Shown in pieces: positions 17,301-18,972 of a stretch of DNA of 64,000 nucleotides. The notes under the pieces were generated by a model that worked only from the letters and a program-made list of their open reading frames with translations, made no database searches and was not told the origin of the DNA. Each line of letters opens with the position of its first letter. Positions within the stretch are counted from its first letter, which is position 1. The stretch spans positions 4,384,001-4,448,000 of the forward strand of contig CBDIID010000003.1 of the NCBI GenBank assembly GCA_965279515.1. Reading direction: 5' to 3'. The DNA is from Turneriella sp. (GTDB lineage: Bacteria > Spirochaetota > Leptospiria > Turneriellales > Turneriellaceae). The position numbers and the translations under genes were made by a program.

Positions 17301-17913
17301 GGGTTATACACAGAAGGCCGTCATCGGCGGCCACAAGGTATACCTGCGCACAGGTGAGTACGAAGACGGTTCACTGGGTGAAATCTTCCTCGACATGCAC
17401 AAAGAGGGCGCGGCTTTCCGTTCACTCATGAATGGTTTCGCGATTGCGGTGTCCCTGGGCCTGCAGTACGGCGTGCCGCTCGAAGAATTCGTCGAAGCGT
17501 TTGTGTTCACGAAATTCGAACCAAACGGAGTGGTGCAGGGGCATGATCGCGTCAAGATGGCGACATCTGTCATGGACTTCATCTTCCGCGAACTTGCGAT
17601 CAGCTATCTCGACCGCAACGATCTCGCGCATGTCTCGCCCGAAGCGTTGGTTGTCGACCAGACAACAACCAAGGACGAAGTCATTGCCGAAGATGAACTG
17701 ACCGATCTTGTCGATCAGGCAGTTCCTGTTGCGGTGGGTGAGGCGACGACACGCGGTGGTCTGCGCGTCAAAGTGAGCGCCAACCAGATTCAGGAAGCGC
17801 GCATCAAGGGCTATGAAGGCACTGCCTGCCCTGAGTGCAGCTCGATGACGCTGGTGCGCAACGGTTCATGCCTCAAGTGCGAGACCTGCGGCGGCACTAC
17901 TGGCTGCTCGTAA
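14362..17913 (+). CDS. nrdJ: Vitamin B12-dependent (class II) ribonucleotide reductase
   Basis: [46 protein letters not shown] domain, C-terminal CPECSS...[19 protein letters not shown]. Confidence 0.97.
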
Positions 17914-17943
17914 TAAGTGACTTCCGCTAGGTCTCGGCTTCCG

Positions 17944-17977
17944 GAGACCTGCGGCGGCACCACTGGCTGTTCTTAAT
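17944..17977 (+). repeat. Direct repeat of the nrdJ 3' end (copy of 17881-17914)
   Basis: 31/34 identical; all three differences are synonymous third-position changes. Confidence 0.9.
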
Positions 17978-17985
17978 CGGGGTTG

Positions 17986-18030
17986 TTAAGGGGGACGAGG
18001 CGTTTCGCAGAAACGCCGAAATCCCCTTAA
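17986..18030. terminator. GC-rich hairpin after nrdJ (terminator or REP-like)
   Basis: TTAAGGGGGA..GGCGTTTC-GCA-GAAACGCC..TCCCCTTAA. Confidence 0.5.
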
Positions 18031-18035
18031 ATATT

Positions 18036-18230
18036 TTAGGTCCCGGTTCTTTTGAAAAGTAAATAGAAAAGATCTTCGACGCGTTCCTGGTGGCGCACGG
18101 AACGCGGTTCCATGAGTATTGCCTGGCCCTTGACAGGCGCCTGTGCATTGAGCAGGGGCTGCCCCGTAGAGATTACTTTCTGCATCGCTGCCGCGAACTG
18201 AATCAAGCGGCCTTCATTGGATTCTTGCAT
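18036..18230 (-). CDS. Possible small hypothetical protein (64 aa)
   Basis: ATG ORF filling the gap downstream of the ferritin-like gene on the same strand; no recognisable motif. Confidence 0.3.
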   Translation of the reverse strand: MQESNEGRLIQFAAAMQKVISTGQPLLNAQAPVKGQAILMEPRSVRHQERVEDLFYLLFKRTGT

Positions 18231-18288
18231 AATCGACCTGTGGTCAGGCCTGTTATATTATCGGCAGCTCAGGCCGAAACGCTGAGTA

Positions 18289-18972
18289 TTATTTTTTCTT
18301 CGCCGTTCTTTTGGCCTGCTTCGGCTTTGTTTTTGGCTGGGCCTTCTTCTTCGCAGATTTTTTAGCCGGCTTTTTCACCGCTTTCTTCGCGGGTTTTTTC
18401 CGGGGCGAGGCCCCTTTCTCCGCTTCCAGGGGAACATTCATTTTTTCCTGCTGGTAGTCCTGGTGTGCATCGCTGTCGACGGCCGGATGTTGAAAGACCA
18501 TCACACCTTCGAGGAGTACAGCGCGTTCGCTGTTAAAGTTTGCCATCTGCTTAAACAGCATTTTGATCGGCGTTTCTGAAAATTTATCCGCGAGTTTTGT
18601 GAAAGCATGCATGGTATCTTCGGCCTCTTGCAAGGCCAGGCGCAATGCCTCGACTTCACTGCCATGCGCGCTCTTTTGCAGGTTGCGGTCGAGTTTTTTG
18701 ATGAGCTTCTGGATCGCCGTTGCCTGGAATTTATGCACCTGGCCCATGTGTTTCAGGTTGGGTAGGCCCTGGCTACCTGAATATTGCGCATAGATGCGTT
18801 CAATCATGCCGATATGGTCTTCGCTGTCTTCGGCCAGGTCGAAGAAAAAGTTTTTGATCGGGCCGTCCTTGAGTTCGTCGTGGGTTTTCATGCAAAAATC
18901 GAAAAAATCTTTCTCGTGCTGTATGCCTGCGGCCACTGCTTCGAGAAAACTGGTGTTTTTTACCGATGCCAT
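18289..18972 (-). CDS. Ferritin-like/rubrerythrin-like protein with Lys/Ala-rich histone-H1-like tail
   Basis: EAVAAGIQHEKDFFDF..FFFDLAEDSEDH..EALRLALQEAE four-helix pattern; tail KKPAKKAVKKPAKKSAKKK. ORF track start is 19008. Confidence 0.75.
   Translation of the reverse strand: MASVKNTSFLEAVAAGIQHEKDFFDFCMKTHDELKDGPIKNFFFDLAEDSEDHIGMIERIYAQYSGSQGLPNLKHMGQVHKFQATAIQKLIKKLDRNLQKSAHGSEVEALRLALQEAEDTMHAFTKLADKFSETPIKMLFKQMANFNSERAVLLEGVMVFQHPAVDSDAHQDYQQEKMNVPLEAEKGASPRKKPAKKAVKKPAKKSAKKKAQPKTKPKQAKRTAKKK

Follow-up and report, generated by a model that had tools for sequence, protein, structure and literature searches.

Why should a gene carry, a few tens of nucleotides behind its stop codons, a second and codon-perfect copy of its own end? 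The question is raised by nrdJ in a 64,000-nucleotide stretch of DNA from Turneriella sp. (the whole of this stretch is called the window), where the last 33 nucleotides (nt) of the gene (17881-17913, copy 1) recur at 17944-17976 (copy 2) in the same frame, with a spacing of 63 nt from start to start. Our answer is that copy 2 is probably the displaced former end of nrdJ, left behind, and probably silenced, by the insertion of a 63-nt unit that bore a tail of its own. The feature in the window is one minimal instance of a pattern which recurs at the nrdJ ends of spirochaetes. Throughout, G000 is the label for the genome of the window, G001 upward are other genomes, and L numbers denote nrdJ loci.

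The duplicated tail of nrdJ

The gene encodes a class II (B12-dependent) ribonucleotide reductase, as given by whole-protein matches above the curated cut-off (NF005736 of NCBIfam at 2026 bits against 1737, and TIGR02504 at 573 bits against 400), and its product carries the Pfam domains Ribonuc_red_lgC, Ribonuc_red_2_N and TSCPD, covering the barrel and the class II N-terminal region. The closest nrdJ loci come from Leptospiraceae and Turneriella metagenome-assembled genomes and have 87-92% protein identity across the last 199 residues; nothing above 92% was found in scans of genome contigs and metagenome contigs, outside which records very near the window may fall.

The two tail copies differ at tail positions 18, 27 and 30 (ACT/ACC, TGC/TGT and TCG/TCT), all three differences being synonymous, and they form a direct repeat of 33-34 nt with 91% identity; the end of the NrdJ protein is the same as in relatives. 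A preliminary description of this DNA, made from its letters, had reported the in-frame repeat 63 nt on with its three silent mismatches, and also a GTG at 17917 that follows TAA TAA and opens 19 amino acids (aa), and both are present where it placed them. It had further picked out AGGTCTC in the junction, which lies at 17929-17935 but proves to be part of a longer inverted element of 17 nt (17924-17940, named A'), able to pair either with the context of copy 1 or with the start of copy 2. For the 63-nt unit a register of 17914-17976 is equivalent to one of 17881-17943, and structure does not separate the two.

A pattern covering both tail copies matched twice in the window and not once in 100 shuffles, which puts the repeat beyond chance. 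When 7005 stop-to-stop open reading frames (ORFs) of at least 150 aa from the whole genome were ranked by the downstream repeat of their own last 33 nt, nrdJ came out best (30/33), ahead of a runner-up at 28/33 and then two at 24/33. That second-best end repeat lies outside the window at C3:3014094-3014724 (+ strand) and has its 28/33 nt match 225 nt past the stop. The tail peptide motif occurs at only these two sites in a six-frame translation of the genome. The spacer with its hairpin has no second copy in G000 at E < 0.05, and of 34 genomes of the order G000 is the only one with the junction sequence, which the 33 others lack even when up to 3 mismatches are allowed.

A check of raw reads had been proposed, and contigs of runs from two studies carry the same sequence: a 22.9-kb contig of run X4, which may be the source of this DNA, has 0 differences across 17401-18400, and a 235-nt contig from a second study's run, X5, has 0 differences across 17746-17980. 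A misassembly is thus out, and the sequence is real in reads from both studies. A joint from 17838 to 17948 in run X4 was considered as a deletion variant and rejected, as it stands on one contig at a depth of 800 against 6.4 for the organism of the window and, with an 82% threshold, was attributed to another organism's nrdJ. Run X4 is a mixed community, with nrdJ contigs of other organisms over window positions 17401-17910 at depths of up to about 800 against 6.4.

Relatives lack the 63-nt unit

All 5 of the relatives that were aligned (L012, L013, L015, L127 and L128) lack exactly the 63 nt, as a clean gap in the MAFFT alignment, and copy 2 with its flank (TCGGGGTTGTTAAGGGGG...) aligns with the true gene ends and 3' flanks of the same five. 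The gap and the collinear position of copy 2 together place the entry of the 63-nt unit at the Glu codon or, which is equivalent, directly behind the old stop. A search of the genus found a second tail match in only G000 among 14 genomes. Alignment of the nrdJ 3' flanks of relatives was a check suggested in the preliminary description, and its outcome, 5/5 without the 63 nt and copy 2 collinear with the shared flank, fits the reading given there of a scar of 3'-end replacement by a related allele; so does the match of spare units elsewhere to working nrdJ ends of other genomes, which is presented below.

The codons TGT TCT TAA of copy 2 are those of the genus majority, which weakly suggests that copy 2 is the older of the two. 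Both copies read GGC GGC where the genus has GGA GCN, so the source was this lineage or a near relative.

The insertion may be pictured as follows. The 63-nt unit would have inserted precisely at the first codon of the tail, Glu, pushing copy 2 into the 3' untranslated region (UTR), where it would no longer be translated, and it would have brought its own tail codons, stops, a short spacer and the inverted copy A'. Because such a unit supplies its own tail codons and stops, the enzyme is unchanged and the event would be close to neutral. A' would then pair with the codons of the real gene, forming a stem-loop around the rest of the tail and the stops. Units of this kind could arise and spread by recombination or by template switching during replication, with the conserved 33-nt tail presumably serving as the short homology: a donor of the order body, tail, hairpins, spare tail would convert a plain nrdJ by one crossover in the body and another between its spare tail and the working tail of the recipient, and each transfer would leave the recipient's own perfect working tail as a new relic. 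If the relic is the recipient's former working tail, differences that are silent only are explained, and the crossovers also explain why the flank is collinear and, given a founder, why the left boundary is fixed. We favour short-homology recombination or template switching as the mechanism.

The nrdJ ends of relatives also show palindromes of other kinds. At L004, L007, L011, L016 and unit 1 of L008, all loci of the genus Turneriella, the nrdJ stop is directly followed by 12-14 nt that repeat the A-T-T-G codons perfectly in inverted orientation, which places the Ser and stop codons in a loop of 7-9 nt, and the arms vary by species and remain complementary. A long GC palindrome comes next, behind GTAG in L004 or GTTG in L011 (in L007 it is shorter and behind GTAT), a layout like that of repetitive extragenic palindromic (REP) sequences. 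At L009 and other relatives Thr-Thr-Gly-Cys is written ACA ACC GGT TGT, a perfect palindrome (14 nt in L009); such palindromic tail codons can form a hairpin or cruciform and might predispose the site to rearrangement, and the copies in the window are without the palindrome. L003 has, directly behind the nrdJ stop and within the first 100 nt or so, a palindromic element that spans about 95 nt, is built of long inverted arms and resembles a miniature inverted-repeat transposable element (MITE).

Table 1. Coordinates of nrdJ, its two tail copies and neighbouring features in the window
Feature	Position	Strand	Basis
nrdJ, adenosylcobalamin-dependent (class II) ribonucleotide reductase, 1183 aa	14362..17913	+	ORF list, NCBIfam, Pfam
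Codons of the six-cysteine C-terminal domain (28 aa) and stop	17827..17913	+	translation; cysteine spacing
Arm A1, K-C-E-T-C-G codons AAGTGCGAGACCTGCGG, partner of A'	17875..17891	+	RNA folds
Tail copy 1, the tail in current use, 10 codons and TAA	17881..17913	+	sequence, translation
63-nt unit missing from relatives: tail copy 1, stop, second TAA, 10-nt spacer, A', CCG	17881..17943	+	MAFFT alignment
30-nt spacer TAAGTGACTTCCGCTAGGTCTCGGCTTCCG	17914..17943	+	sequence; unique in genome
Hypothetical 19-codon ORF, GTG...TAA, probably not a gene	17917..17976	+	translation
A', CCGCTAGGTCTCGGCTT, inverted copy (two imperfections) of the K-C-E-T-C-G codons, includes AGGTCTC	17924..17940	+	folds
Tail copy 2 (probable relic), 10 codons and TAA, runs on into the 3' flank common to relatives	17944..17976	+	alignment
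Strong hairpin with ATATTTT behind it, a likely terminator (bidirectional) between nrdJ and the convergent small ORF	17986..18030	+	inverted repeat, fold, alignment
Convergent 64-aa ORF bounding the intergenic region, conserved in relatives, without a family	18036..18230	-	ORF list, alignment

Spare tails at other spirochaete nrdJ ends

A set of 199 distinct nrdJ 3' ends (relatives, 80 named genome loci, 80 metagenome loci and 30 loci of one treponeme-like family) was compared, and 17 of these ends carry 19 intact extra tails, every one on the strand of the gene. The carriers with names are spirochaetes (L082 of the Rectinemataceae, L089 of the Spirochaetaceae and L111 of the Spirochaetales), and 13 of the 17 carrier ends are among the 29 readable ends of the treponeme-like family, the family of G041. 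Decayed or partial copies were seen at L008, L014 and L060; the spare tail of L008 has a 1-nt deletion and is nearest to the real tail of L009, providing an example of such decay.

The common order is a tail and its stop, then, 7-30 nt on, the (L)KCE(TC) codons of the gene itself as an inverted copy, at least one perfect GC hairpin and the next tail, which nearly always starts at GAR ACN (in L082 and L060 the start lies 3-9 nt before this, and in L089 it is ACC). The units of the window (63 nt) and of L089 (51 nt) are minimal versions, the others measuring 116-180 nt. L226 has a near-perfect tandem duplication of a whole unit, which indicates that arrays also grow by unequal recombination.

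A search that took no account of coding and asked for at least 22/33 identity to the locus's own tail returned 20 copies and 0 decoy matches. In the spare tails (the frameshifted L008 copy left out) differences fall 2/2/82 over the three codon positions, 86 in total, and at codon level the 19 intact tails show 80 synonymous against 3 nonsynonymous differences with 19/19 stops kept. Third-position differences and kept stops mean that the divergence of the spare tails accrued under coding constraint. The idea, raised for the window in the preliminary description, that silent divergence reflects coding constraint at some time is strongly borne out across loci, 82/86 differences being at the third position.

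Small hairpins accompany several of these units. At L226, L237, L238, L244, L246 and L253, all of the family of G041, a hairpin stands directly before the spare tail with a constant TACT loop (TACC in L238) and a CGC...GCG stem, of which three inner pairs co-vary (GGG/CCC, CAG/CTG, CGG/CCG, GTG/CAC and GAG/CTC). At L239 (about 190-275 nt past the stop) and L243 a further spare tail is split, after GAGACGG and GAAACTG respectively, by an orthologous perfect hairpin of 41 nt, from which it follows that small palindromes also land inside spare tails.

Probable exchange of gene ends between genomes

The spare unit of L239 is 100% identical over 96-98 nt to the functional end and 3' UTR of L066, while outside this block the gene bodies are 86-87% and the downstream flanks 94% identical, and the edges of the block lie at the Glu codon and just past a hairpin. 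The spare unit of L231 is likewise 92% identical to the functional end of L236, against 85% in the body. Two types of unit occur in either order (x-y in L239, y-x in L164, and y only in L066 and L147), and the inverted copy behind the spare tails of L187 and L164 complements the codons of an allele other than that of the resident gene. On these comparisons the spare units look like exchanged gene ends, that is the working ends of other alleles, and not like local junk.

At L008 we count 5 silent changes in the working tail and 2 events in the spare copy (Fisher p = 0.004), which suggests that its working tail came from elsewhere. A look for recombination breakpoints showed the gene body of L008 to be L009-like to its end and gave no clear breakpoint in the comparison of L164, L066 and L147. 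In a search for donors of the diverged spare tails of L082, L164 and L187, the nearest real tails were still 3-5 differences off.

Observations against a silent relic and the case for translation

Several of our observations weigh against copy 2 being a silent former end. The Glu-codon boundary of founders in independent lineages is not accounted for. In the window the 3/3 silent differences (P = 0.019 under neutrality, and P = 0.075 if copy 1 alone was constrained) hint weakly that copy 2 has been constrained as well, and neither the GTG right after the stops nor the excess of first spare copies that are in frame (10/17 loci, p = 0.027, the lineages not being independent) is predicted for a relic. 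The orthologous-looking spare tails of the close relatives L244, L246 and L253 differ at third positions only, which needs either rapid turnover or real selection. As GGC GGC is specific to the lineage and shared by both copies, a local duplication would look the same as an import from a near relative. No conspecific plain allele was found, and the nearest relatives are about 80% identical, so that polarity and age would be read from the collinear flank and two codons (TGT TCT). The best evidence of transfer is from metagenome-assembled contigs, as are most of these loci.

Some of the same observations would be expected if copy 2 were translated, whether through termination-reinitiation at GTG 17917, as the 19-aa ORF, or in another way, with selection on the peptide keeping the codons perfect. 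To the start codon directly behind TAA TAA, the shared frame and the silent differences may be added the count of 80 synonymous to 3 nonsynonymous differences with all 19 stops kept, and L082 and L187, which have ORFs with GAGG and an ATG that end in the tail. The start codon and open frame seen in the window are, however, not conserved wherever spare tails occur: an in-frame ATG, GTG or TTG follows the last stop in only 10/19 copies and is missing in 9/19, L089 has a stop codon at the Glu position, and the loop of the H1 hairpin is 3, 4 and 5 nt long in L253, L244 and L246, which shifts the frame upstream. No purine-rich ribosome site was seen by inspection ahead of 17917, and the inverted copies behind spare tails match absent alleles, for which a peptide gene would have no need.

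The cysteines bear on the same point. In the translation, those of the NrdJ C-terminus are spaced C-x2-C-x10-C-x2-C-x2-C-x5-C, and in the domain of S. nassauensis, as given in the excerpted text of PMC5704485, the spacing is C920-x2-C923-x9-C933-x2-C936-x2-C939-x5-C945, with Cys920, 923, 936 and 939 proposed as Zn ligands and Cys933 and Cys945 as the redox pair. NrdJ of the window thus has a six-cysteine domain like that of S. nassauensis, with the roles of its cysteines assigned by pattern only. On this pattern the peptide would have Cys5, a predicted Zn ligand, and Cys6, and would be without Cys3, the proposed redox partner; moreover, according to the same excerpt, the whole Cys-rich domain expressed separately restored no activity to the truncated enzyme (PMC5704485). 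We consider translation of copy 2 very unlikely, and the trans-acting redox shuttle or other translated peptide envisaged in the preliminary description is not supported, in view of the inconsistent starts (10/19), the loop indels that shift the frame and, as far as the excerpted source goes, the missing partner cysteine. No RNA run is listed as containing the stretch, which counts neither for nor against translation. Readthrough to a double-tailed protein was also tried and rejected, there being TAA TAA in the window and in-frame stops between the copies at most loci.

RNA structure at the nrdJ end

The 63-nt unit might instead be kept for RNA structure, A1:A' (or A':A2, the pairing of A' with the start of copy 2) stabilising or regulating the 3' end of the nrdJ mRNA and copy 2 acting as a second arm or competing partner. 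The A1:A' stem-loop (17872-17943), whose loop encloses the rest of the tail and both stops, has a predicted energy of -29.8 kcal/mol (z -3.02 in RNA folds against shuffles), and the A':A2 hairpin (17920-17960) one of -20.8 kcal/mol (z -3.13), so both fold better than shuffles; the fold of the full segment 17872-17976, on the other hand, is not exceptional (z -1.57), and an Rfam covariance search of eight loci including the window region gave three chance-level matches below gathering scores, none of them at the units.

Inverted copies that enclose the stop are commoner at nrdJ ends than in controls: 11/173 ends have an exact inverted complement that is 12 nt long or longer, against 0/173 shuffled ends and 0/163 distal controls (6 of the 11 ends have direct copies too). 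These inverted copies track the synonymous codons of their own gene in L004, L007, L011, L016, L066, L082, L111, L164, L172 and L187. The hairpins beside spare tails, co-varying in the stem around a constant TACT loop, would also be in keeping with a role in RNA, although templated copying between palindrome arms can mimic covariation. Against such a role, an arm needs only about 11-17 nt and not ten codons and a stop, 82/86 differences at third positions are a signature of coding, and in long arrays A' pairs over 14-20 nt with the real gene and over only about 6 nt with the next tail. Retention for RNA structure is in our judgement rather unlikely as an account of the whole unit, and as regards A' it is compatible with copy 2 being a displaced former end.

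Mobile cassettes and other insertions as alternative readings

A further account would make the unit an active, dedicated cassette that encodes no protein and depends for its movement on an enzyme acting in trans, specific to a site or a structure and able to recognise the tail DNA or the hairpin, much as with integron cassettes or hairpin-borne transposons. It would suit the left boundary, which lies at or at most 9 nt from the Glu codon in independent lineages, the stacking of units in arrays in either order, the unit that keeps 100% identity although its background has diverged, and whose edges are sharp at the Glu codon and behind the hairpin, and the spare tail split by a perfect 41-nt hairpin in L239 and L243. 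Yet, outside the tail, an all-against-all BLAST of 176 downstream regions gave no element sequence that lineages have in common. The spacers each occur once in their own genome and are missing from the order's 33 other genomes, and diverged pairs share only TGYGG, without the core identity expected for site-specific exchange. G000 has four matches to PF00589, the nearest about 430 kb off, and one Y1 transposase at 2.6 Mb; no candidate enzyme was evident in this genome when Cas1, PF00589 and Y1 were looked at, and no search across array-bearing genomes was made. Movement of an active cassette by such an enzyme is thus, to our reading, unlikely. An att-like event, proposed in the preliminary description beside allele replacement, finds no integrase here, the insert being 30 nt and the nearest tyrosine recombinase gene about 430 kb away.

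Three related candidates were rejected. Fragments like a phage attP were sought among viral contigs, and the 16 with the tail pattern all had it at the ends of long nrdJ frames, none standing alone. A dispersed repeat of the REP or MITE kind does not agree with the window spacer, which is unique in G000, nor with the 105-nt spacer of L111, which is unique in G041 and absent from G042-G044. Hairpin modules shared between lineages were not seen, as BLAST of the 176 downstream regions gave only orthologous flanks and tails.

The geometry of 34 + 29 + 34 nt resembles the repeat-spacer-repeat of clustered regularly interspaced short palindromic repeats (CRISPR), and the variable repeats of diversity-generating retroelements (DGRs) lie at the 3' ends of genes, so that off-target integration of a CRISPR spacer and a DGR template/variable repeat pair were weighed together with an assembly artefact. 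Cas1 (PF01867) has 0 matches in the 99.99%-complete G000 while 7/14 control genomes are positive, the spacer holds an inverted copy of the flanking codons, and inserts elsewhere are of 84-147 nt, all of which stand against CRISPR. For a DGR, the differences are T/C, C/T and G/T with none at an adenine, and the repeat is short, at 33 nt (no search for a reverse transcriptase was made); for an artefact, the contigs of the two studies agree. We regard this whole group as extremely unlikely, and a displaced end of nrdJ remains the explanation that we prefer.

Comparison with known systems

In E. coli, according to excerpts of PMC6379469 and PMC13626634, the prophage e14 or phage 21 in icd supplies a new gene end and leaves icdC behind. 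On that partial account the likeness is that DNA inserted where an essential gene ends (its 3' end) brings a replacement for that end, so that the protein stays intact and the old end is duplicated downstream. The difference is one of scale and content, e14 being a prophage of about 15 kb with an integrase and a duplicated icd end of 163 bp, whereas the nrdJ insert is 30 nt with a 33-nt tail, has no gene inside and no recombinase within about 430 kb, and belongs to a kind of unit that stacks in arrays in other spirochaetes. Judged by what marks icd and e14, the nrdJ locus has the direct repeat with an intact ORF and the empty site in relatives, but not the adjacent integrase.

Genomic islands at transfer RNA (tRNA) and transfer-messenger RNA (tmRNA) genes regenerate the 3' end of the gene, form tandem arrays, are kilobases long and encode an integrase. 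As there, direct repeats of the target's 3' end flank each nrdJ unit and the arrays show several displaced ends, but the nrdJ units are only 51-180 nt and encode nothing but the tail. With REP sequences, bacterial interspersed mosaic elements (BIMEs) and MITEs the nrdJ ends share small GC-rich hairpins just after stops, and the relatives in Turneriella have GTAG-tagged long palindromes behind nrdJ; the spacers of the window and of L111 are, in contrast, single-copy, and nrdJ units carry a codon-perfect piece of a gene, which REPs do not. Of what defines such elements, a stable imperfect palindrome is present in the window (A':A2) and many dispersed copies are not.

Replication template switching, considered together with quasipalindrome-templated changes and tandem duplication mediated by microhomology, would give the direct-inverted-direct arrangement seen here (tail, inverted copy of its start, tail) as the product of two switches, and perfect palindromes lie at the junctions, but it does not explain why the boundary is the same in many lineages or why spare units equal the working ends of other genomes. 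Integron cassettes form arrays with attC hairpins and the IntI integrase. To these the likeness is in outline only, hairpin-bounded units standing in variable order by a fixed site, and the nrdJ units are without an independent gene.

A literature search specific to nrdJ found no description of duplicated nrdJ ends, which is weak evidence of absence, and the recurrent class of spare ends is apparently undescribed. We raise, as a tentative possibility, that these "tail cassettes" are a distinct class of protein-less mobile DNA of 50-180 nt, made up of the ten final codons of the gene, a stop, an inverted copy of preceding codons and GC hairpins, which pass between genomes and stack behind nrdJ. 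It is equally tentative that the tail codons, universally conserved, serve them as a portable homology arm or attachment site, that the inverted copy or a hairpin sets the junction at the Glu codon, and that the Turneriella unit is a minimal member of 63 nt.

Ribonucleotide reductase genes are hot spots for selfish DNA, including introns, inteins and homing endonucleases. If there are indeed tail cassettes, they would be a far smaller kind of passenger, one that spares an essential gene by bringing a copy of its last codons, and 33 conserved coding bases would suffice as a landing pad between diverged genomes, which bears on the use of short homology in horizontal transfer. For annotation, codon-perfect spare ends could be mistaken for small genes, read-through extensions or misassemblies. 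In the window alone the consequence is modest, since the enzyme stays as it was and the additional copy is probably silent, and the interest lies in the class.

The intergenic region behind nrdJ

A hairpin at 17986-18030 (-25.0 kcal/mol, z -4.38) stands just ahead of the stop of the convergent 64-aa ORF and is partly conserved in the alignment with the relatives L012 and L127. A simple terminator scan of 17914-18035 made no call; the A' hairpins are without a U tract, and the 17986-18030 hairpin is followed by ATATTTT and is likely a terminator. The terminator-like hairpin of window positions 17977-18032 (query positions 477-532) has look-alikes at unrelated places in G011, G002 and G009, and exact pieces of it of 17-20 nt occur elsewhere in G000, so that it may be a dispersed hairpin repeat.

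The convergent 64-aa ORF (18036-18230, - strand) is conserved at the DNA level in several relatives and matched no Pfam or NCBIfam family, and its stop adjoins the hairpin which closes the nrdJ intergenic region.

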